Positions 2,841 to 42,991 of a DNA stretch of 53,037 bases are shown here, one piece after another. Made by a program: the position numbers and the translations under genes. The stretch's first letter is position 1, and the number at the start of each line of letters is the position of its first letter. Source of the DNA: a virus. The DNA is taken from the UHGV virus genome UHGV-0150124. One strand, 5' to 3'. The notes under the pieces were generated by a model that had not been told where the DNA came from, did no database searches, and worked only from the letters and a program-made list of their open reading frames with translations.

Positions 2841-5800
2841 TGCTGTCGTTGATGTTATAAATGATCCGGTGCCTCTTGCTACTATCATTGTTGGAGAATA
2901 CAACGCGGTACAATATGCGTATCCTTCAGATGATGATGTTTGAGGACAATATATTTTCCCGATAATATCTGATGCTTTTAAACCAGAAAAAGCGCATTGC
3001 ACTGTTAATGTGCATCCACCATAAGGCACGTAATATGAAATTGTTTTGTTTTTATCTCCGCAACTAAACGTTACGTTATAAGTGGATCTATATTCACCAG
3101 ACATTAATGAAATAGTCGCCATAAGCATAACTGATTTCGTCAATGCATTATCCGTGCTGTCTTTATATGTGATGGTTGCGCTATAACTTCCGTTATGCCC
3201 AAGTACTCGATCTGGACCAACCCCCATGTTAGCAACGTCACCGATAAATGACTTTGCCTCTACTGTACCTTTAAACTTCCCGCTTGTGGCCTGAATCTCA
3301 CCAGTGAATTTACCAGATGTTGCGTACACCGTACCGCGTACAGTGACGTTGTTGAACTCCGCATTGCCGTTTTTATTTAGCATCCAGCCAGCCGAACCAG
3401 CTTTATAGTTGGTTGACTGAATTTGCTGCGCAATCTTCGCGGTAGTGATTGATGCGTCTCTGATCCACGCATCACGGATGTAGCAAGCACCGTTAGTAAC
3501 ATAGAACGGGGTCTGATAGGAGCCACCTGCCGCAGTCATAAGCACGAAACGGTCAACGAGGAAAATACACTGCGATTGAACGTTAGTCCCGCTACCAGTA
3601 AGGCCGAGCGACATTCCTGTAGCGTATTTCATACCGTTTTTATCAGTGGCAATCTTAATTGAATATGACGCATCAACGTTACCTTTGAAGTCAGTCAGTG
3701 CTTTTGATGTCGTTTCTATCGCCGTTGTGTTTCCGTTAATAGTTACTTTCAACTGGTCGATTCTGGTTGACAATGCCTCGTCTGCCGTTGCCATAGCCTG
3801 TGACCATTCCGTGATGCTTGAGTTTACATCGTCGAAAGATGCCGAGATCTGGCCAAATTTTTCCGCGCTTGATGTTTCATGCGTAGAAAGTGCAGTTGAC
3901 ACTTCGGATACTTTCGAATTAATCGTACTGGTAAGCGATGAGTTAAGGCTGCTGATTGCGTCAGTGCGTGCATTCTTCTCATCTGCGATCGCTTTATCCA
4001 TCCTGGTTACGTTGCTTGTCACCTTGCTATCGAGCGTGGAAATTGACGCATTAACCCCGCTAATAGCTTCTGCGCGTGCGCTTGATTCATCGGCGATAGC
4101 CTGATCCAGGCGCTTAACACTGGCGTCAGTTTTGCTTTCAAGGGTACTGATATTGGCGTTAACGTTGCTAATGGCTTCAGCGCGTGCGCTTGATTCATCG
4201 GCTATCGCTGTATCTACCCTTGCTATTTCCGCTTTTGTTTTTGTTTGCCCTTTCCTGTATTTCGCCTCAATAATAGTGCTCATCTTGCTTTGTGCCATTG
4301 AGTTATTAATAAGAGCAAGTGAGGCGTTTTGCAGACTTGCTTTCGCCTGATCTATCTCGTCGCTGTTTTTATCAACCTCACTTTTAACGCCGTCAAGCGA
4401 CGCGCTGATACCTGATATCGCCTGAGCACGTGCGCTTGATTCATCGGCGATAGCCTGATCCAGGCGCTTAACACTGGCATTTGTGTTATTTTCAAGCGTT
4501 GTTAAATCAGCTTTAACCACTGTTATTGCGTCGCTTCTTGCCTGCGTTTCATCTGATATTGCTTTATCAAGGCGGGAAACGCTGGCGTCAGTTTTCTTGT
4601 CAAGCGTTGAGATACTTGCGTTCACGTCGCTGATAGCCTGAGTACGCGCACTTGTTTCGTCTGCAATTGCCCGGTCAAGACGGTTTACGCTGGCGTCAGT
4701 TTTCTTGTCAAGATTGCTTATTGAAGCGTTCACGCCGTTAATGGCTTCAGCGCGTGCGCTGGCCTCGTCAGCCACTGCGCGTTCCACACTGGAGATCTGA
4801 CCTTTAAGGTTAGAATCCATCGTGTTCATTTCTGCCGTGATGGTTTCCAGTGATTCCGCTGTCGCTTTTTTCTCTTCAGCGATAACGTTGTCAATACGGT
4901 CAATTTCAGCCTTCGTCTCTGTCCTACCTTTCTTGTACTGAGCGGTAAGAGTTACGCGAGTGTTAGTCTGTGCAAGCGAGTTATTGATAAGCGCCAATGA
5001 CGCGTTTTGCAGGCTTGCTTTTGCTTGCGCCAGTTCGCTGCCAACTTTTTCGCTGGATACTTCAAGGGAGTCTATTCTTGACTCATGCTGCCCAATATCA
5101 TCGGCGTTTTCCTTAACTTTTTTATAAAGATCTTCCGTTTCTTTTTTAAGTGTATCCGTGTCAGCTTTTATCGATCCTGTTTCTGTGATTAGGTTGTCAG
5201 TTTCAGTCCTTAAATCGTCAGTTATTTCGGTCAGATTGTCAGTTGCAGTTTTAAGGTCATTCGTAGCGCTTTCGATAAGATCAGTGCGGTCGCCTAGATC
5301 TTTAATGTCATCAACCATTTCTTTAAACTGTTTTGAATTCATCACGTCTTTGGTGACGTAATCGGTGATTTCATCAAAGTTTTCTGTTGGCTTACCTGAT
5401 GCTTCAACGAAATCTGACACGCCGAAAGCGTTACGTGTGCGCACATAAACGTAATATGTGTGACCTGTATTCATGCCGCCAAACGTCCACTGATGACCAC
5501 GACCTGTATATTGTGCTTTAGTGGTTACTGATGCCGGGTCGGTGATCTGTGTTTCACCTGAGTAATAAAACTCATAACTGGTATCAGTGGTGAGCGTTGT
5601 TCTGCTGATCGGGTAAACGGTAGCCTGGAATACACCAGGAACCCAATTAACGCCGACGGGGGCCGCTGGTGCACCAATAACCAGATCCACAATACTTTCC
5701 GCGCCCTTCATGCCAGTATCATTACGCCCGCGAATACCTAATGAATAGATTCCTGAGTCAATGCCATAAAAATCATAACTGTAATTCGTAGTTTCGTAGC

Positions 5801-9713: not shown

Positions 9714-9731
9714 TTTCTCACCTTGTCATTT

Positions 9732-9747
9732 TGTGATATGCGTCACA
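9732..9747. promoter_or_regulatory. CRP-consensus palindrome TGTGATATGCGTCACA
   Basis: Perfect TGTGA-N6-TCACA half-sites, ~62 bp upstream of a candidate promoter start. Confidence 0.4.
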
Positions 9748-9767
9748 CTAAATCACACCAAAATGGA

Positions 9768-9796
9768 TTGATCATGGTTTTTACAATATGTATATT
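9768..9796 (+). promoter_or_regulatory. Candidate sigma70 promoter for the plus-strand moron cassette
   Basis: -35 TTGATC (9768..9773), 17-bp spacer, -10 TATATT (9791..9796). Confidence 0.35.
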
Positions 9797-9824
9797 TTAC
9801 TCAAACGAAGGGGAAGTTAACAAA

Positions 9825-10031
9825 ATGGCGCGGAGGTGCGTTATGACTGAAAAGCCATGGAAGTTGACGGTATTCATGACAGACGGTAGGGAAAAGGTTA
9901 TCGCCCTGTATGACGACGAGGGGGAAGCATTGGTTGACGCGCTTTTACTTGCTGAGGATGACCGCCTTTTGGGATACCAGATCGAACCTGTCAAATATGA
10001 GGCTAACAAAAATGAAAAAATACAGTCTTGA
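9825..10031 (+). CDS. Hypothetical protein, moron cassette gene 1
   Basis: ATG at 9825 after GAAGGGGAAG; opposite strand to surrounding tail genes. Confidence 0.4.
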   Translation: MARRCVMTEKPWKLTVFMTDGREKVIALYDDEGEALVDALLLAEDDRLLGYQIEPVKYEANKNEKIQS

Positions 10032-10362
10032 TGTGTGGTTAAGTGGTAGCAAGGAGTGTTTCGGATTATTTGATAGCGAAGAAGTAGCCCTGGAAGAAGG
10101 CAGGATTCTTGAATGTAGTTTAGGCCATCCAGTGAAATATGCTGCTAATCCGGTACAGATAGTTGATGAGGTGGAAGATATGAACCCGAAAGATATTAAT
10201 GTTAACTTCAATGTTAATTTTGCAGACTCTATGGATCAGTCTTGCCCTGGTGAAATACACGCAAAAGGTTTCCCGGCTGACGATCCAGAAGCAAAACGCG
10301 AATACGAAAAAGCTGCGAAAGACTTCTGCATCGATAACCTAAGCTGTTTTAATGGCAAATAA
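10012..10362 (+). CDS. Hypothetical acidic protein, moron cassette gene 2
   Basis: 116-aa ORF, ATG at 10012. Confidence 0.4.
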   Translation: MKKYSLDVWLSGSKECFGLFDSEEVALEEGRILECSLGHPVKYAANPVQIVDEVEDMNPKDINVNFNVNFADSMDQSCPGEIHAKGFPADDPEAKREYEKAAKDFCIDNLSCFNGK

Positions 10363-10377
10363 AGAGTGAGCCAATAT

Positions 10378-10611
10378 ATGAAGATGATAGGTATTATCAA
10401 ACTCGTTGTTACATCTAACAAAAAGAAGGATTTTAATATAAAAGATAAATACCCATTATTCAAAACATCTTCTGGTACTTATTTCACTGTTGGCAACTGT
10501 TTAAACTTTGTTCCGCTGACAGTGCTTGATGTTTCTGGAGGCATGGTGAAATGGTATGGAACTGTTTACGGCGATGATTTTATGCCTGATATGCTATTTT
10601 TTGATGCGTAG
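10378..10611 (+). CDS. Hypothetical protein, moron cassette gene 3
   Basis: ATG at 10378 after AAAGAGTGAG. Confidence 0.4.
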   Translation: MKMIGIIKLVVTSNKKKDFNIKDKYPLFKTSSGTYFTVGNCLNFVPLTVLDVSGGMVKWYGTVYGDDFMPDMLFFDA

Positions 10612-10621
10612 GAGTAAAATC

Positions 10622-10870
10622 ATGGGGCGGCGCAATCACGGTGATTATGTGTACACGTTGAAACAGGCCGCCCGCCTCGTCGGTTATCATGAGCACGAAT
10701 TTATTGATTTGCTGATTGAGCGCGGGATTCTGTACCAGGTATGTTTAACGCTGTACCCGAAAGCGAAATACCTACAGGAAAAGTTATTTATCATCATGAC
10801 GGATGAAAACCAGGTAAATCATTCATTCGTCACCGATAAGGGATTGACATATTTGAAGGGAGTGTTATGA
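10622..10870 (+). CDS. Putative HTH DNA-binding protein, moron cassette gene 4
   Basis: ATG at 10622 after AGGAG; segment YTLKQAARLVGYHEHEFIDLLIERGIL looks like an excisionase/MerR-type HTH. Confidence 0.4.
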   Translation: MGRRNHGDYVYTLKQAARLVGYHEHEFIDLLIERGILYQVCLTLYPKAKYLQEKLFIIMTDENQVNHSFVTDKGLTYLKGVL

Positions 10871-10947
10871 GGTGTGTGAACATTACATTCTCGAAGTGAT
10901 TATTATTGCGGTAGCTGTAATGCTGGTATTATCACCAATATTATAAA

Positions 10948-10972
10948 CCCCGCTCCGGCGGGGTGTTTTTTT
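10948..10972 (+). terminator. Intrinsic terminator ending the plus-strand cassette
   Basis: Hairpin CCCCGC-TCCG-GCGGGG followed by TGTTTTTTTT. Confidence 0.6.
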
Positions 10973-11184
10973 TAATCGTAGGATAGAAATGCCACCTCTT
11001 TGCCATCATATGTCGTACAGCCGACATACCCATCACCCATATCATGAAGATACCAGGTCTCACCGTCATCAGCCTTTACAGTGAGATCATTAATTTCATA
11101 ATCGGCAAATAATGTAAAAGCTCCAGTGCGCTCCACTACACAAAAATAAGGCATATAACCACCTCTAATTAATAACTTGCTCAA
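10972..11184 (-). CDS. Hypothetical small protein
   Basis: 70-aa ORF between the M-like gene and the moron cassette. Confidence 0.3.
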   Translation of the reverse strand: MSKLLIRGGYMPYFCVVERTGAFTLFADYEINDLTVKADDGETWYLHDMGDGYVGCTTYDGKEVAFLSYD

Positions 11185-11518: not shown

Positions 11519-11685
11519 AAAACCCCCACAAGTTACATTTTGTATATATCTTTACGCGCTTCTACGCGAAAAATAAGATCATTGTCACAATGATTATAGC
11601 TAGTTTACAAAATGGCTTCACATAGCACGCAACAAGATGTATATAGAAAGCAAGAAGAAAGTAGTACCAACGAAGGAGGCCCAAA

Positions 11686-11841
11686 ATGAAACGCTATGTA
11701 GTAGTAATGCTAAATAACGCATTCGAACAAGTGGAAATAGCAATCGTTAAGGGTTTCGACGACGCATTCAAATACGGTCAATTCATGATGAATGCGAAAG
11801 AAGATGAATACCGGGACTTCTTCCTGAAGGCACTTAACTAA
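11686..11841 (+). CDS. Small ORF (51 aa), first gene of opposite-strand mini-cassette A
   Basis: ATG at 11686 after AAGGAGG; preceded by motif GTTTACAAAATGGCTTCA. Confidence 0.3.
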   Translation: MKRYVVVMLNNAFEQVEIAIVKGFDDAFKYGQFMMNAKEDEYRDFFLKALN

Positions 11842-11858
11842 GGATGATGGGGTGAGTT

Positions 11859-12113
11859 ATGAAACTGGTAGCGATTGACAGAAATCTGAAAGCACAGAAA
11901 AACGCACAGGACCGGATCATCAAGAAAGGTAAGGAATTACTTAAAGCCTTTCTGAGAAAAGAAGTTTACCCCAAAAAGTTACGCGACGGTTACGGATACA
12001 AAATGGATATCAATCTTGATTGGAGGCTGTTTAGCGAAGATTTGAAGGTTTGGTTAATTGTTGAGCACCATGCCTATAACAAGTTATGTGGCGTGAAAGG
12101 CACTCATAAGTGA
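11859..12113 (+). CDS. Hypothetical basic protein (84 aa), mini-cassette A
   Basis: ATG at 11859 after GGGGTGAG; followed by terminator. Confidence 0.4.
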   Translation: MKLVAIDRNLKAQKNAQDRIIKKGKELLKAFLRKEVYPKKLRDGYGYKMDINLDWRLFSEDLKVWLIVEHHAYNKLCGVKGTHK

Positions 12114-12174
12114 GTCGAGATATTCGAAAGGGGATATATCGCGCGGAATGGTCGTTTATAAATACGAAAAATAA

Positions 12175-12205
12175 CCCCGGCATTGCACCGGGGTTTAGTT
12201 TATTT
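12175..12205 (+). terminator. Intrinsic terminator after mini-cassette A
   Basis: Hairpin CCCCGG-CATTGCA-CCGGGG followed by TTTAGTTTATTT. Confidence 0.5.
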
Positions 12206-14545
12206 GCGGCGAGGTTGCAACATTCCGCCTGGTCTTTGAGATTCCCTTGTTATCATTTTCATGGCTACACGTTCCATTGTTAATTCAAGTCTGCGGCTGT
12301 CTTCGTCGCTGAATCCGTTCGTGGTCTGAATGCTGATACTGACAGGCATACTAATACCGCCACCGCCGCCAATATCACGGCCCGGAATAACTCTGCCGTT
12401 CTCGCCAGGGATCATATATTGATTGCCGTTAGATGTCTGGAATAGCTCCGGCCTGTTGTGTTCCCCTACGCGGTACATATTACCACCAATGACGCTACCA
12501 CCATTAAAGCGACCGCCGCCGAAAATTGACGTAGCCAGCGACATGATCGCAGTGAGCGCCGCCGAACCAGCCGCCGCCCAGCTACCGCCAGTTGACGCCG
12601 CAGTTGCCGCCGCTGCTGGGGCCGCCGCCGCAGCAATGCTTCCCTGAGCTGCTACCGCGCTTGCTGTTGTACTTGTTTGCGTGGCCTTGCTTTGTGTCTC
12701 CATCATGATCTGATCTGCTATCCAGTTTGCAGCTATGTCTGAGAGTCTGTTACCGATATTGCCGAGTATATTGCTTCCTAAGTTAGCAAAAACATCACTC
12801 AATGATTGAGTGCCGTTTAACAGGCCAACAAGCGCATTACTCATTCCGCCTTTAAGGCCATTAACACAATCACCGATAAGGCCGTTTGTGTCGCTTTGCG
12901 CCTGCCATTGTTCCCATTTCAGATCGCGGATCTGTTGCTCATAGGCTAACAATTCCTGTTTCTGTTGCGCTTCAGTAGCGCCCAGGTCTATAAGCATTTG
13001 CTTACGGATGGCCCATTCATTTTGCGCCTGCTGGATGGGGTCAACTTCGCCTTTTAGCTGATCCATCGGGCTTACTATTTGTGACCATTTATCACGCAAT
13101 TCATCTACCGGAATTTGTGCTAATTCTTCTTTCAGTTCCTTACCGATCCCTTTTTGCGCGGCGCGGTACTCAAGGAGTGTGATTTTACCCTGGGCGAATG
13201 CAGCATCAATGGCCTTTCCGTTCTCTAATGCTTTGCGCATAGCTGCGGCGTCTTTATTGTACTGGTCAGAAACGCTTATGCCCTTGTCACCAAGCGTATC
13301 CTCTTTGCTTTTCTTGCTGCCAGTTTTCTTACCCTTTTTAGGTTTATCAACTGGTTTATCGAATCCGGTAATGGCTCCGTCTTTTGGTGCTGTTAACGCC
13401 TCTTTCGCTTCTTCGCCTTTTTTCCTGACCGCATCAAGATCACTCTTAAGCGTCATAACCTGGCCTACGACCGGGCCGAACATTTTTGTCGGATTGCTGT
13501 TTAGTTCTTCCTTGCGCTCGTCTACAATTTCCTTCATCCACTTATATGCATCCATCAGCGCCTTGATTGGCGTCACCATTGCAATGATCTTCTCTGCTAC
13601 CTCGCCAGCCTTCACAGCCACATCATCAAACATGTCGATGAATTCGCCACCAGCCGTTTTGAGTGTATCGAAGCAGGTTTTAGCGAATTTAGCGCCCTCG
13701 CCAAGCCCTTTAACGCCCTTCGTGATTAAGTCGATAGCTGAAACAACGCCATCTGATACGCCGAAAAGATCATCAAGCTGCTCAACAAGGCCCATGATTT
13801 CGACTTTAAGCTCATTCAGGGCCGTGCCGGATGTGCGCGGCAACTGCGCAAACTTCTCGTTTGTTTCCTGCGTAGCCGCCTGGATTGCGTTAACCATCCT
13901 TTCTGCCGTGATCTTACCGTCCAGCATTTCGGCGCGGAACTGGCCCATTGATAATCCCATATGGCGGGCCATTGTTTGTACGATGGTCGGGGTGTTTTCA
14001 AGTAGGCTGTTAAATTCTTCAGCACGCAGCACGCCGCCGTCTATAGACTGGCGGAACTGGCGCATAGAGTTTGACATTTGCTCTGCTGACGCACCGCCTA
14101 ACGCCCCCATTTTCTGAATAGTGCCGACAAGGTTAAGTAATTGACCTTCGGTAGCTGACGTGTTCTTCAGTGAGATAGCCAGGCCTTGCCATAGTTCGCC
14201 AGTATCCTTCAGGCTCTGACCCGTCTCCCTGGATATTGCTTTCAGGCCGTCAAAAACCCGTCCGGCGGACTCTGCATCGCCCGTAAGCATTTTGATTTTT
14301 ACGCGAAGCATTTTTGCTTGCTCCGCCATATCCATAAATTGGCGCACAGCCTCGGCAGCAATTAGCAAATGGATAACCCTGGTCAGTGCCTTGATGGATG
14401 TTTTCAGGGTGTTTACCTGGCGGTCAGCCTGTTTTGCGCCGCGCTCTATACGATCAAAGGCCTGGTCTGCCTGTCGTTGTGCAACGAGAAGTTGACCAGT
14501 TTTCGCATCAACTTCGTAATAAATTGTACCTACACTGGTAGCCAT
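12200..14545 (-). CDS. Tail tape measure protein
   Basis: 781 aa, long helical/coiled-coil body, Gly/Ala-rich C-terminal region; sits between tail chaperone and tail tip genes. Confidence 0.85.
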   Translation of the reverse strand: MATSVGTIYYEVDAKTGQLLVAQRQADQAFDRIERGAKQADRQVNTLKTSIKALTRVIHLLIAAEAVRQFMDMAEQAKMLRVKIKMLTGDAESAGRVFDGLKAISRETGQSLKDTGELWQGLAISLKNTSATEGQLLNLVGTIQKMGALGGASAEQMSNSMRQFRQSIDGGVLRAEEFNSLLENTPTIVQTMARHMGLSMGQFRAEMLDGKITAERMVNAIQAATQETNEKFAQLPRTSGTALNELKVEIMGLVEQLDDLFGVSDGVVSAIDLITKGVKGLGEGAKFAKTCFDTLKTAGGEFIDMFDDVAVKAGEVAEKIIAMVTPIKALMDAYKWMKEIVDERKEELNSNPTKMFGPVVGQVMTLKSDLDAVRKKGEEAKEALTAPKDGAITGFDKPVDKPKKGKKTGSKKSKEDTLGDKGISVSDQYNKDAAAMRKALENGKAIDAAFAQGKITLLEYRAAQKGIGKELKEELAQIPVDELRDKWSQIVSPMDQLKGEVDPIQQAQNEWAIRKQMLIDLGATEAQQKQELLAYEQQIRDLKWEQWQAQSDTNGLIGDCVNGLKGGMSNALVGLLNGTQSLSDVFANLGSNILGNIGNRLSDIAANWIADQIMMETQSKATQTSTTASAVAAQGSIAAAAAPAAAATAASTGGSWAAAGSAALTAIMSLATSIFGGGRFNGGSVIGGNMYRVGEHNRPELFQTSNGNQYMIPGENGRVIPGRDIGGGGGISMPVSISIQTTNGFSDEDSRRLELTMERVAMKMITRESQRPGGMLQPRRK

Positions 14546-14702
14546 GATTTAACCTCATGCAGAATGTGATGTATGTCTCTATTTTATACAAAATGGCTTC
14601 ATTTCAACGAATACATTTTGTATAAAGAAGCTAAAGGGAAGGGATAGAGCAAATGGATTTAAAAGGCCGGATTAACCGGAGGAAGCAAAAGGGGACAAGA
14701 AA

Positions 14703-14786
14703 ATGAAAAACGCAAACTACCGCCCCAACGAACATGAACGCTATGCGGATTTCATCGAAGAAATGTTAAAAGCACTTAAAAAATAA
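14703..14786 (+). CDS. Small ORF (27 aa), first gene of opposite-strand mini-cassette C
   Basis: ATG at 14703 after GGGGACAAG; preceded by motif TATACAAAATGGCTTCA shared with cassette A. Confidence 0.25.
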   Translation: MKNANYRPNEHERYADFIEEMLKALKK

Positions 14787-14854
14787 ACAATATGCGTGTA
14801 TAAATAAGTTAAAGGAAGAATTTAGCAAATCATAATAAGCGGTAGGAGTTGATT

Positions 14855-15268
14855 ATGAAACGGTTAGCAAAAATGGCACTTACTGTGATTGCCGCACTCG
14901 CATTTAACGCGAACGCTAACGAGGCCATAAGCATTAACTGTGAAGAAGTGGCAAACCATGTAGCAGCATATCACGACATGATCAAAAAAGAACCAGCCGC
15001 GCCAGCAATTCTTTTTAAGGCAATTGATAAAAAATTTGAAGGTAAACCAGTTTATGCTCGCTGGTTTAATTATGGCCTTGTAAACGAGGCTGCTGTAGGC
15101 GTAGTCTTTGAAAATAATAGCGAAATAAAAAACAGGATAGCAAACGAGTGCAAGGCAAATAAAGTTGCTTTCGCGGAAAGAATTTTTAATGAAGGCGGCG
15201 CGGGCGCAAAAAATTACGCAATTGTAGATTTGGGTAACGGGTTTATTGATATTATTAGAATCAAATAA
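14855..15268 (+). CDS. Secreted protein with signal peptide (moron)
   Basis: ATG at 14855 after GGTAGGAG; signal peptide MKRLAKMALTVIAALAFNANA; followed by terminator. Confidence 0.5.
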   Translation: MKRLAKMALTVIAALAFNANANEAISINCEEVANHVAAYHDMIKKEPAAPAILFKAIDKKFEGKPVYARWFNYGLVNEAAVGVVFENNSEIKNRIANECKANKVAFAERIFNEGGAGAKNYAIVDLGNGFIDIIRIK

Positions 15269-15275
15269 GATGAAC

Positions 15276-15300
15276 GCCCGGATCTACCGGGCTTTTTCTT
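15276..15300 (+). terminator. Intrinsic terminator after mini-cassette C
   Basis: Hairpin GCCCGG-ATCTA-CCGGGC followed by TTTTTCTT. Confidence 0.55.
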
Positions 15301-15970
15301 GCTTGCTATTTTTCATTCTTTCCAGTGCCTTTTTAGCGGCCTCCATTTGCTCGTCATAAGCACGTTTATTTATGTGAATGTTTGGCTTGCTTCTCTCGTT
15401 TCTTTCGTCTGGCGGCGTTTTAGCGCGTACAACGGCCCTATATCCGGTCATTGTCATATTCCATGCTTCTGATTCTGATAACCCCAGGTGAGCTACGGCA
15501 GAATAAACGAATTCCAGCACGTTAAAAGTCGGCTTATATTCCCCTTCCCGGCTCTCTCCGGCGTCTTCTTCTGGCCCGTCACCGATTAAACCGTGGTACA
15601 TGCAATGTTGTGCCAGCGTGATAACGTCACTGGTCGGCATCAGTCCGGGTTTTAGTCGTAACTTGCCGGAAGAAGTTAACCTACATTCACCCAATAACGG
15701 GGCTATTTCGTCGTCTGAGCAACATTTCAGGATGCGCATTGACGTTTGTACTATCTCACCATAACACCGCGCCATAATGCGATTGCGGAGGTCTGGATCT
15801 GTAGGCAATCGTGATGGGTATTTGCTGCCGTGGATAAGTGCGAAATATTCGACAAGCTCACTATCGTTGCCGATTTTAGCCATCGCAGCAAAGCAAGGAT
15901 TAAACTCATAGCGCTTACCGTTCACCACAGCAGCAAATTGTCCTGTACGAACATGGATCATAGTATTCAC
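15284..15970 (-). CDS. Putative tail assembly chaperone
   Basis: 228-aa ORF immediately upstream (in operon order) of the tape measure gene; assignment by position only. Confidence 0.35.
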   Translation of the reverse strand: MNTMIHVRTGQFAAVVNGKRYEFNPCFAAMAKIGNDSELVEYFALIHGSKYPSRLPTDPDLRNRIMARCYGEIVQTSMRILKCCSDDEIAPLLGECRLTSSGKLRLKPGLMPTSDVITLAQHCMYHGLIGDGPEEDAGESREGEYKPTFNVLEFVYSAVAHLGLSESEAWNMTMTGYRAVVRAKTPPDERNERSKPNIHINKRAYDEQMEAAKKALERMKNSKQEKAR

Positions 15971-32320: not shown

Positions 32321-32510
32321 CCTTCACCTCGCGACGATAGATTTCTACTGGCTTAACCGGAATAGCGTTAAAATCCCCTTCATCCAGTGCGGCAATAAAC
32401 GTTAGCGCCAACCGTGCTTCAACACCGCTTAAATACTTGCACCATGCCTCACCGTTATAATCTTCAAAAAGAATAACCGCTTTTTTCATGTTTATCTCTT
32501 GTTGTTTCAT
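32310..32510 (-). CDS. Hypothetical protein
   Basis: 66-aa ORF starting at the Q stop codon. Confidence 0.4.
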   Translation of the reverse strand: MKQQEINMKKAVILFEDYNGEAWCKYLSGVEARLALTFIAALDEGDFNAIPVKPVEIYRREVKDEA

Positions 32511-33232
32511 TATTCACCCCGTGTCACTCGTTTAATTTCGTTATCAGCCCGCGCCTCTTCTTTGAACAATTCAGTAATGGCGTCTTCATAGAAAGCACGG
32601 TATTTCTTCCACCACGTTGATCGGCTTACCGGAAATACAAGCTGATTAACCGCACGCCGGACAAGATCTACAGGGAAACGCGAGTACCCGCGCCCGCCGC
32701 AATGCTGGCACGTTTTGAACACTGGCATTTCCGCTGCTTCACTGGCTGCTTTATCCGGTATCTCGCCGCGCCCTTTGCATCGTTTACAATGATTACGAAC
32801 TTTTCCATGCCCCTTGCATTTTTTGCAAAGGTGTTTTTCTCCGTAGTCGTCAAACGTAAATTTATATCCGCCGCAATCCATACAAGTTTTTTCTGTCGCG
32901 GCACTCTGGCAGTAATCCCGAAACGCGAAAACGGCAACAAGAATAATAAGATCATTGCGTTTGTCCTCGTCCAGCTCTATGACGTATTCGTAATCTTTTG
33001 CCATAGCTCTTAAACGCTCTGTAAGCAAAACTACGGCCCTGTGTTTTTCGGCTTGCGATAGTTCCATCTTTCCCAAAAAAGCGCTATAGCCAAGCTCTAC
33101 GCGCGATTGCGCCATACCCGCAGCGGTTAGCGCATCCGTCGTATTAAGAGCGTCCGGGGACGTGCCCCGGCTTTCGTCAGATAATCGCGGTGATTTAGGA
33201 AAGTGGAATTTTAGAATGGATTCTAAATTCAT
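32510..33232 (-). CDS. Q: Late-gene antiterminator Q (lambda type)
   Basis: 240 aa; N-terminus MNLESILKFHFPKSP vs lambda Q MRLESVAKFHSPKSP; Cys-rich zinc-binding segment CMDCGG...CKRCKGRGE...CQHCGGRGYSRF. Confidence 0.85.
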   Translation of the reverse strand: MNLESILKFHFPKSPRLSDESRGTSPDALNTTDALTAAGMAQSRVELGYSAFLGKMELSQAEKHRAVVLLTERLRAMAKDYEYVIELDEDKRNDLIILVAVFAFRDYCQSAATEKTCMDCGGYKFTFDDYGEKHLCKKCKGHGKVRNHCKRCKGRGEIPDKAASEAAEMPVFKTCQHCGGRGYSRFPVDLVRRAVNQLVFPVSRSTWWKKYRAFYEDAITELFKEEARADNEIKRVTRGE

Positions 33233-34420: not shown

Positions 34421-34732
34421 AAAAACCACCCCGATTATTTTTGATTCTCTGTTTCGTTCAGCCTTTCGGCGTGTCCGGCCCTTAGCCAATGTTCTAAGCA
34501 TTCGTTGCACTCGTTACAGCCTCCTTTCTTCGTGCTGCATACATTGCACATTGCACGCATAACGCTTTCTCGTTCATAGTCGTCATGCCATTGGTAATCA
34601 TCAAAAGACATAATGCTCTCTCCTTTTCAGGTGATTTCTACGCATTTCAGCGCTGCCGGATTTTTAAAGAGCATTTTGTTTGCTTGAAGTATACAAAATG
34701 GATATGCCATAACAAGGTGAAAAGCGCCATTA

Positions 34733-34748
34733 TGTGATACGTATCACA
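34733..34748. promoter_or_regulatory. CRP-consensus palindrome TGTGATACGTATCACA
   Basis: Perfect TGTGA-N6-TCACA within a fully symmetric 14-bp palindrome, in the gap between methylase and ninG. Confidence 0.4.
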
Positions 34749-34770
34749 CAGTGACGCCATTTTGTAAACT

Positions 34771-41938: not shown

Positions 41939-42310
41939 CTTAACATCTTTCAACTAATCCCGCAATCATCGCCGTTCCCGGCGTGACCTTGCTCACTCCA
42001 AGCAAGCTGACTCGTCGCCTTGCGTGCGGTTTCGTGGGGGATGTAACGCTTTAAACACCCCATGCGCCTTGTTATCAGTGCCGCTTTCGGTCCCCCATCG
42101 GGGAGTTACTCCACGGTTGACAAGGTGTTAAGCCTGATTTTTAAAGTGCCAGGAAGTTGCTTTTGTTACCTGCGCCCTTCCTTTGACTCGCAATATACGC
42201 CCCGTAAAACATCGAGTCAATCCATTTTGTATACTTTTTTAAAATATTTTATATGCCATTGATATTTAAATAATAAATAACGTTTTCTGTTTACGTTTTG
42301 GTGTTTTCCA

Positions 42311-42343: not shown

Positions 42344-42991
42344 TTATGGCAGGTTTACGATCTTCGCATCAACCACCACGCCTATAATTTTTGATTCTGG
42401 ATTCATAGGGATTGGCGGATACAGCGGATTGAGCGAACGTAAAAGCCTTTGACCTCCATCAATAATCAACTGTTTAAACGTCGGTATCTGCCCTTCCTCA
42501 AGCTGGGCTATAACCAGTTTGCCGTCAATAGCTGGCGCGTGCGGGTCCACAAGTATCATCGTCCCCGCCGGGATGCTCAACCCCTGCGGCGCGTTCATTG
42601 ATTCACCTTTGGCAACCAGCCAGTAACTGTCATCTGAACAAATAACGCTAGTCGTAACGTGTCGTAATGCTGAACGCCTTGCGTCATCCATATTGTTTAC
42701 TGTGTCCTTCCAGTCAATAACCGGGTAACTACCTAAATCACGCGGCGGCACGGCCTGAAGTGTATTAGAAACAGAATCATCAATGACCATGCCATCATGT
42801 GTAACAGTAAACTGCCGACGACCAAGCTCGCGCATAATCCGCGCAATATCTTCAAGATTTGGCTCTCGGCGACCGTTCAGCCAGTGTGACAGGCCGCCTT
42901 TAGTTATCCCCATACGATCCGCGAGCGAATCCTGGCTCATGCCCTGCGCCCGCATGAGCTGCTTTGCTAAGTCATACCATTTTGTTTTCAT
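42344..42991 (-). CDS. cI: cI-type repressor (HTH plus LexA/S24 autopeptidase domain)
   Basis: 215 aa; N-terminal HTH (QDSLADRMGITKGGLSHWLNG); C-terminal S24-like domain with GESM serine and downstream Lys. Confidence 0.85.
   Translation of the reverse strand: MKTKWYDLAKQLMRAQGMSQDSLADRMGITKGGLSHWLNGRREPNLEDIARIMRELGRRQFTVTHDGMVIDDSVSNTLQAVPPRDLGSYPVIDWKDTVNNMDDARRSALRHVTTSVICSDDSYWLVAKGESMNAPQGLSIPAGTMILVDPHAPAIDGKLVIAQLEEGQIPTFKQLIIDGGQRLLRSLNPLYPPIPMNPESKIIGVVVDAKIVNLP

Follow-up and report, generated by a model that had tools for sequence, protein, structure and literature searches.

The first element to be called a moron was gene 15 of phage HK97, which separates the tail assembly chaperone gene from the tape measure gene and encodes gp15, a YebO-like inner-membrane superinfection exclusion protein whose block on DNA injection depends on the tail region of the incoming phage (PMC3594210). 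Here we describe cassette C, a small unit at positions 14585-15300 of a 53,037-nucleotide (nt) stretch of viral DNA, UHGV virus genome UHGV-0150124 (the window, by which we mean the whole stretch that was analysed). Cassette C sits in the same genome slot as HK97 gene 15, and like gene 15, which has its own transcription signals, it consists of extra DNA, here with its own terminator and a putative promoter, and includes a gene for what is predicted to be a small envelope protein. The two have no sequence relationship, however, and whereas gp15 is an inner-membrane protein, the 137-amino acid (aa) product of cassette C is predicted to be cleaved and periplasmic. Unlike gene 15, cassette C is on the opposite strand and bicistronic, and exclusion by its product is putative. 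Taking our best explanation as a whole, including the mechanism proposed below, we consider it about 60% probable that cassette C is a horizontally acquired, self-contained transcription unit lying antisense in the late tail operon. It is an already known kind of element at the classic moron site, with an unusually tidy modular design.

Other prophage genes offer further points of comparison. The mEpimmI phages carry exclusion lipoproteins, Lpp021 and Lpp010, elsewhere in the genome (PMC11893012), and the portion of that text that was searched mentions neither the cassette slot nor its cargos. The lambda-type lysogenic conversion morons bor and lom and the phage exclusion lipoproteins Cor, T5 Llp and Lpp021/Lpp010 are comparable in being prophage genes for exported envelope proteins in or near the late genes. 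In contrast to this group, the 137-aa protein has a signal-peptidase-I site, has no lipobox and forms an orphan family. Tab, a moron of Pseudomonas phage JBD26, is expressed constitutively from the prophage, blocks tail assembly and is linked to the tape measure (PMC10884400). As a small orphan protein encoded in a late operon Tab resembles the cassette C product, for which a role in prophage-expressed defence would be a further likeness, but it is not described as exported, its gene lies between terminase genes, and the two share no sequence relationship. P1 Sim and T4 Imm and Sp are further small phage proteins that are exported; from the periplasm or the membrane they block the entry of DNA from incoming phage. 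Here the analogy is one of mechanism only, as Pfam, PHROGs, PADLOC and fold searches gave no homology between these proteins and the cassette C product. In the terminal reassortment of type III effectors, and likewise in polymorphic toxin/immunity cassettes, an N-terminal secretion signal and its upstream DNA are kept while the C-terminal part is exchanged. Cassette C differs in that its signal is a Sec signal peptide in a moron slot, with joints at the signal-peptidase site or inside the signal peptide.

Most moron proteins are without known function, and morons are a main route by which prophages change their hosts. The locus concerns the classic moron site in a newly described coliphage family that is reported to be prevalent in the gut, and it adds to that family two un- or under-annotated genes, one for a protein of 27-29 aa and one for an orphan secreted protein. 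Beyond the known kind of element, the additional points are a tiny conserved gene, an orphan exported protein, an exchange of cargos anchored on the signal peptide and an unexplained phage-wide motif. We judge the practical interest to be moderate because elements of this kind are well known.

Nucleotide matches of the window region reach 95% with Escherichia phage MagusPhagus and 72-92% with mEp021, mEp010 and other mEpimmI coliphages; for MagusPhagus, mEp021 and mEp010 taken together the matches are at 80-95%. By sequence we take the window to be a relative of the mEp021/mEpimmI coliphages and a temperate siphophage of E. coli. The mEpimmI family was described in 2025 as Nus-dependent, non-lambdoid temperate siphophages (PMC11893012). 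The window encodes an integrase, and its three boxA sequences, CTTTAAAAATC(C/A)GG, match nutR1, nutR2 and nutL of the same source. The genes that orient the late operon and flank cassette C are the following.

42344-42991, - strand: CI-like repressor gene (Rep)
32510-33232, - strand: Q-type antiterminator gene
12200-14545, - strand: tape measure protein gene, the left flank (PF20155, E 3e-50; phrog_1538)
15284-15970, - strand: DUF6246 gene, the right flank (PF19759, E 3.5e-55)

The repressor gene, the Q gene, the integrase and the nut layout together indicate that late transcription runs on the - strand, and this transcription must traverse cassette C antisense to reach the tape measure gene. 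The initial annotation of this DNA had placed the cassette between tail chaperone and tape measure genes. The tape measure gene is borne out by its domain match; the DUF6246 gene qualifies as the chaperone by position, in the interval between the tail tube and tape measure genes that usually holds the tail assembly chaperone.

Several observations identify cassette C as an insertion. The DUF6246 and tape measure genes are separated by 738 bp in the window, and the guanine-plus-cytosine (GC) content of the cassette is 38.1%, below the 50.3% of the tape measure gene and the 47.5% of the DUF6246 gene. Distant relatives of DUF6246 were found in the species-level genome collection in only two Castellaniella prophages, at about 30% identity, and one of these (L070) was inspected. 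At positions 4050-4065 of that prophage a homologous tape measure gene begins within the stop codon of the DUF6246 gene (TGATG); there is no insert, and the overlap makes the two genes translationally coupled. We presume this to be the ancestral state, which the cassette has split in the E. coli phages. At the other end of the cassette is a terminator with a six-pair, all-G-C stem followed by a T tract; the stem shares bases with the DUF6246 stop codon on the - strand. Read on the - strand the hairpin has no proper T tract, and it should therefore stop + strand transcripts only. Cassette C is probably a moron in the sense of Juhala and Hendrix, being extra DNA of differing base composition with its own terminator and a putative promoter. 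The initial annotation had proposed a moron-type unit, and this proposal stands: between tail genes that abut in distant relatives there is additional low-GC DNA, which has a terminator of its own and a promoter-like block that is conserved. The parts of the cassette are as follows.

14565-14580, + strand: candidate CRP-like half-conserved site, TGTGA-N6-TCTCT, centred at about -61 from the predicted transcription start
14585-14623: palindromic block, with left arm TATACAAAATG (14585-14595), a 17-nt variable spacer and right arm CATTTTGTATA (14613-14623)
14598-14626, + strand: predicted sigma-70-type promoter, TTCATT-17-TATAAA, with its start predicted near 14633 and the left arm at about -48 to -38
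14633-14702, + strand: purine-rich 5' leader; a small hairpin within it (14667-14679), CCGG-ATTAA-CCGG, is conserved
14703-14786, + strand: gene for a 27-aa peptide (MKNANYRPNEHERYADFIEEMLKALKK) that is charged, probably helical and cytoplasmic
14797-14832, + strand: internal copy of the promoter -10 region and proximal leader, a direct repeat of 14619-14654 (local alignment z 6.6)
14855-15268, + strand: gene for the 137-aa precursor, which begins MKRL; the signal peptide is encoded at 14855-14917 (MKRLAKMALTVIAALAFNANA, followed by NE)
15276-15301, + strand: intrinsic terminator, GCCCGGATCTACCGGGC followed by TTTTTCTTGC (-17.5 kcal/mol, z -4.85), in the place after the long open reading frame (ORF) where the initial annotation had put one

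For comparison we collected the same slot from seven phages, from 35 of 5,426 complete E. coli genomes, from metagenome and genome contigs carrying homologues of the 137-aa protein and from 44 IMG/VR contigs recognised by the palindrome pattern. The cargos of 49 loci were recorded, and the promoter block was aligned in 17 loci and recovered by pattern in 24. In all collected loci the first ~60 bp past the tape measure start codon are near-constant and read TGTGAT-N-CTATTTTATACAAAATGG-N-CATTTTGTATAAAG. The TGTG of the CRP-like site is invariant in the aligned loci, and the site has 8 of 10 matches to the CRP core, a score that is not significant alone. In the pattern search the palindrome arms were invariant or had changed together and the spacer was variable. 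The block is a perfect inverted repeat of 11-12 bp, composed of two copies of one motif, around a spacer of 16-18 bp that varies. As single-stranded RNA the block folds (z -6.8). The cassette C block, TTATACAAAATGGC-TTCATT-17-TATAAA, lies in register with a strong promoter at 42222(-), GTATACAAAATGGA-TTGACT-17-TATATT, which is downstream of the repressor gene and reads into nutR1. In register with both is TTTACAAAATGGC-TTCACA-17-TATATA, the counterpart in front of cassette A, a second + strand unit of the window that is treated below, and both cassette promoters are weak by consensus. A more extensive paralogy of the cassette C promoter and leader with the early promoter and nutR1 region was considered and rejected, the likeness covering only 15-20 bp and the boxA-like stretch not being significant. 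A boxA-type match in the cassette C leader (14657) does not qualify as a nut site: it has three mismatches where true nut sites have zero or one, and at the three-mismatch level the window holds 15 matches against 7 expected, so that such a match is not distinctive. The leader RNA has no significant overall structure (z +0.98) and matches no Rfam family.

The 27-aa ORF seen in the initial annotation behaves as a gene. An ORF of 27-29 aa is intact in 38 of the 49 loci and has taken an in-frame 3-nt indel. Among its 21 distinct sequences the variable sites fall 10/5/18 by codon position and the ratio of nonsynonymous to synonymous substitution rates (dN/dS) is 0.08. An internal control, an arginine-rich leader ORF of some relatives, gave 6/10/7 and a dN/dS of 1.08, with no third-position bias. 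This control ORF, of 30-32 aa (MERGRRKPLKLRK...), lies in an expanded purine-rich leader at eight loci (L008, L020-L025 and L057), and its substitution pattern suggests that it is probably not a gene. For the 137/138-aa gene the corresponding values were 38/31/100 and 0.10, and from these patterns we conclude that both the 27-29-aa ORF and the 137/138-aa ORF are real genes under purifying selection. The small gene accompanies five different cargos and is missing beside the same cargos at other loci, and its function would therefore be independent of the cargo. The same pairing pattern contradicts a role as an antitoxin-like partner or as a cargo-specific leader peptide, and a Pfam search for a toxin-antitoxin pair in cassette C found no toxin domain. 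The small gene is mostly unannotated in RefSeq; its product has no match in Pfam, PHROGs or PADLOC, and a tblastn search against phages found it only in the mEpimmI-type group. Behind it in the window, the internal copy at 14797-14832 may act as a weak second promoter (TTAAAA-17-TATAAA). Relatives that have no small gene carry a leader of this internal type directly behind the promoter, and the window arrangement therefore looks like a recombinational fusion of two versions of the cassette, with 14797-14832 probably marking the joint between the versions with and without the small ORF.

The second gene encodes the presumptive exported product. The initial annotation had described a protein of 139 aa with a mature part of 118 aa. 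An ORF of 139 aa can indeed be read from a TTG at 14849, but the Shine-Dalgarno sequence AGGAG (14844-14848) and all homologues favour the ATG at 14855, which gives 137 aa and a mature protein of 116 aa. A rule-based heuristic, used in place of a trained predictor, recovered the elements of the signal peptide that had been claimed: residues 1-7 carry a net charge of +3 (MKRLAK), an 11-residue hydrophobic core follows (maximum Kyte-Doolittle value of 2.56 over 10 residues), and the A-N-A cleavage motif ends at residue 21. Across 15 homologues the sequence of the hydrophobic region varies freely yet stays hydrophobic. Two of the homologues (P0003 and P0004) have (NA)n expansions, of +2 and +4 residues, immediately ahead of the predicted point of cleavage, which suggest slippage in an AACGC(N) repeat; such expansions would be tolerated because the segment is removed at cleavage. 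No lipobox of the form [LVI][ASTVI][GAS]C occurs in the protein, whereas two lipoprotein cargos of the same slot, families F5 and F6 of the census below, have LVGC and LTGC. The mature 116-aa protein contains two invariant cysteines, Cys29 and Cys99, and two cysteines are also present in the other secreted cargos. These features agree with the proposal of an exported periplasmic protein, carrying as they do the hallmarks of Sec export and signal peptidase I cleavage, and they fit a periplasmic, disulfide-bonded product.

The homology and structure check suggested for the mature protein was carried out, and the 137-aa protein is an orphan in both sequence and fold. It has no match in Pfam, PHROGs or PADLOC, and the AlphaFold2 model, a five-helix bundle with a C-terminal beta hairpin (predicted local distance difference test score, pLDDT, 78.7), found no homologue in a fold search. 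A word-indexed homology search returned only 17 clusters, with identities of 67% or more and E. coli as the sole source, and an exhaustive profile search of 1.84 billion representatives added nothing further that was credible. Three long repeat proteins from that search look spurious; the one inspected (P0021) is a tandem-repeat protein. In these searches no sequence or fold homology to described superinfection exclusion or anti-phage defence families was seen. All homologues of the 137-aa protein whose context was inspected lie in the same slot.

At other loci the slot holds other cargos. Family by family, the census of 49 loci gave the following counts.

F1, 27-29-aa ORF: 38 loci
F2, 137/138-aa protein: 24 loci
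F3, 33-35-aa transmembrane peptide: 18 loci
F4, 100-107-aa membrane protein: 13 loci
F5, VasI/TagO-family lipoprotein (PF11319, E 1e-16): 12 loci
F6, 124-aa lipoprotein: 11 loci
F8, 116-117-aa secreted protein: 4 loci

A 119-aa secreted protein homologous to F8 and a 160-aa secreted protein were found at loci outside this census. The families occur in many combinations, such as F1-F2 (the window), F5-F6, F1-F3-F4 and F1-F2-F3, and the common cargos other than the small peptide are all envelope proteins, as judged by a signal-peptidase-I site, a lipobox or transmembrane helices. The joints between fixed and exchanged DNA can be placed closely. Strain 127, with a 116-aa cargo, and WCHEC025970, with a 138-aa cargo, have about 90% identity over a stretch that begins at the tape measure start and takes in promoter, leader, small gene, ribosome-binding site and all of the signal-peptide coding segment; directly after the codons for ...AFNANA identity falls to about 45%. 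Another pair of loci (L020 and L052) is unrelated upstream of the start codon, shares 65 nt of signal-peptide sequence at about 90% identity and diverges from the cleavage site onwards. With the lipoprotein cargo only the first 27-33 nt are common (MK.LAKVAM), and in profile comparison the signal peptide was the one element common to the families. The right-hand joint of the exchange is the terminator that overlaps the end of the DUF6246 gene. We conclude that the slot is a cargo-exchange hot spot in which the promoter, leader, small gene, ribosome-binding site and signal-peptide codons are fixed and the mature domains are swapped; whole genes are exchanged too. With the same promoter and signal peptide in front of different envelope cargos, the 49 loci amount to a natural experiment on moron function and on the targeting of exchange.

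A further-reaching interpretation is possible, although we rate it as rather doubtful when its parts are taken together. The slot would be a dedicated export chassis, in which a palindromic promoter built on the phage-wide regulatory motif, the 27-aa gene and a shared Sec signal peptide are combined with mature domains or envelope genes swapped by recombination inside the signal-peptide codons. If so, each lysogen would receive a different periplasmic repertoire for defence or immunity, the arms would couple expression to the prophage regulator, and the 137-aa protein would found a new periplasmic exclusion or immunity family.

We propose the following mechanism for cassette C as a self-contained moron. 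The Q-dependent late operon, which runs on the opposite strand, would be silent in the lysogen, and the weak sigma-70 promoter TTCATT-17-TATAAA, aided by the A/T-rich arm upstream of it, would fire. A short + strand mRNA ending at the terminator would yield the small cytoplasmic peptide and the precursor, and the latter would be exported by Sec, cleaved after ANA and oxidised to a disulfide-bonded form in the periplasm. In the lytic phase the cassette should be suppressed by the late transcription that converges on it. The exported product might then protect the lysogen at the envelope, by superinfection exclusion or a related defence. Such protection is our best guess at the most likely role and the weakest step of the argument; it is suggested because nearly all alternative cargos are envelope proteins, because mEpimmI phages have exclusion lipoproteins and because HK97 gp15 is encoded at the same site. 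The presence in the slot of the VasI/TagO-family lipoprotein, a type VI secretion-associated family, raises a different role, namely that the exported protein gives periplasmic immunity or protection against type VI secretion system effectors, colicins or lysozymes and that the slot collects immunity genes. The combinatorial swapping of small envelope cargos, which recalls orphan-immunity arrays, would suit such a role. We consider it quite unlikely nonetheless, as the 137-aa protein is unlike any known immunity family, the function of VasI/TagO is not established, and the characterised moron at the same genome position is a superinfection exclusion protein.

Several points weigh against our explanation of cassette C as a constitutive lysogen-expressed moron. 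The -35 hexamer of its promoter matches at only three of six positions and there is no T at -7; a promoter scan flagged nothing on the + strand at the cassette; and the arm sequence TACAAAATG(G) flanks or overlaps three nut-associated early promoters, which could mean that the cassette is regulated by the phage and is not constitutive. The last point concerns a motif that recurs throughout the phage. The sequence TATACAAAATGGCTTCA at 14585-14601 (+) has a one-mismatch copy at 11604, in front of cassette A, and two-mismatch copies at 34752(-) and 42217(-), making four matches within the window against 0.02 expected. Its 10-mer TACAAAATGG, counted with one-mismatch variants, is over-represented across the window, with 22 copies against 5.7 expected, and exact copies of it or of the palindromic variant TACAAAATGTA lie at 2394-, 11606+, 11997+, 14587+, 34692+, 34757-, 42222-, 43065- and 47331-. 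In forward orientation the motif ends right at the upstream edge of several -35 hexamers, including that of the nutR1 promoter (42222-). In reverse orientation it covers part of the -10 at the promoters that lead into nutR2 (34692+) and nutL (43065-), and further copies lie 18-20 nt upstream of start codons.

What the motif does decides whether the cassette is expressed constitutively in the lysogen, activated by the repressor or expressed early in the lytic cycle. It could be an UP-element-like promoter module, as it may fit a proximal UP-element subsite (consensus AAAAAARNR), or it could be an operator for a phage regulator; a recombination boundary sequence would be compatible with the mosaic joints. 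In the operator case the arms, at about -43 and -15, would bind the CI-like Rep or another phage protein, and cassette C would be either shut off in the lysogen and switched on soon after infection or induction, or activated by the repressor as lambda PRM is through OR2. The abundance of the 10-mer, its presence at the nutR1, nutR2 and nutL promoters and on both sides of the two cassette promoters, and the far better conservation of the arms than of the spacer would all be expected of an operator. We nevertheless regard control by a phage regulator as unlikely. The half-sites are 28 bp apart centre to centre, unlike a CI-type operator, and from each site to the next both spacing and orientation are different. 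Prophage KKa019 has AAAACG in place of AAAATG in both cassette arms and has kept AAAATG in all other copies, which speaks against the idea, considered and rejected, that the arms track a changed protein specificity.

The element that clusters at the repressor gene is a different one, ACT(C/T)GCA, and its absence from the cassette promoters is a further argument against their control by the repressor. Its count across the window is at chance (16 against ~13), and four copies (42186, 43022, 43076 and 43099) stand on both sides of the repressor gene; these clustered copies are candidate half-sites of Rep operators. An attempt to infer the Rep operators from a solved relative failed, the closest being lambda CI, whose recognition helix differs, and no single consistent operator emerged when the immunity region was searched for palindromes. 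At 34733-34748 (-), between two inverted 10-mer copies, we noted a perfect CRP-type site, TGTGATACGTATCACA. A TTGTTA-16-TATACT promoter and the nutR2 boxA (34656-34669) lie downstream of this site, a position that suggests catabolite control of the delayed-early transcript.

Cassette A, which the initial annotation had treated as a paralogue of cassette C with the same layout, has the tape measure gene on one side and a minor tail gene on the other and contains the following.

11604-12195, + strand: cassette A, GC 39.9%, with a terminator at 12173-12195
11686-11841, + strand: gene for a 51-aa protein (phrog_29810)
11859-12113, + strand: gene for an 84-aa ParE-like toxin (PF24732, E 9e-12)

Neither product is exported, and the gene pair is probably a toxin-antitoxin pair by its domain content. 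The terminator has T/A tracts on both sides. The leader sequence said to be shared by the two cassettes is present in front of both, but the likeness is confined to 15-17 bp: local alignment of the leaders gave at most 15 identical bases, the cargos are unrelated, cassette A encodes no signal peptide, and its 51-aa product does not align with the 27-aa peptide. Nor did the proposal of a mobile or duplicated unit survive, as no terminal repeats, mobility genes or transposition signatures were found and the cargo changes reflect recombination inside conserved flanks (promoter, ribosome-binding site, signal peptide and terminator). It is very improbable in our view that a single mobile or duplicated moron unit is present twice, as cassettes A and C, even though a common motif stands before both and both are low-GC, hairpin-terminated units on the + strand. 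The similarity ends with 15 bp, the same motif recurs at nine or more other places, a ParE-like toxin pair contrasts with a small peptide and a secreted protein, and homologues of the 137-aa protein were never found in slot A. From the shared 15 bp, the unrelated products and the lack of terminal repeats, transposase or other mobility genes, we conclude that the idea of two copies is not supported; the sequences are better described as two morons using the same type of phage promoter.

A perfect 17-bp palindrome, ATCATTGTCACAATGAT, at 11578-11594 closely precedes the motif copy before cassette A; it looks operator-like and is degenerate in MagusPhagus (TCTTCATCACAATGAT). A third low-GC block (40.8%) on the + strand, at 9714-11164 between minor tail genes, in which the shared 10-mer is not in promoter position, contains an ORF with a KilAC antirepressor domain at 10556-10870 (PF03374).

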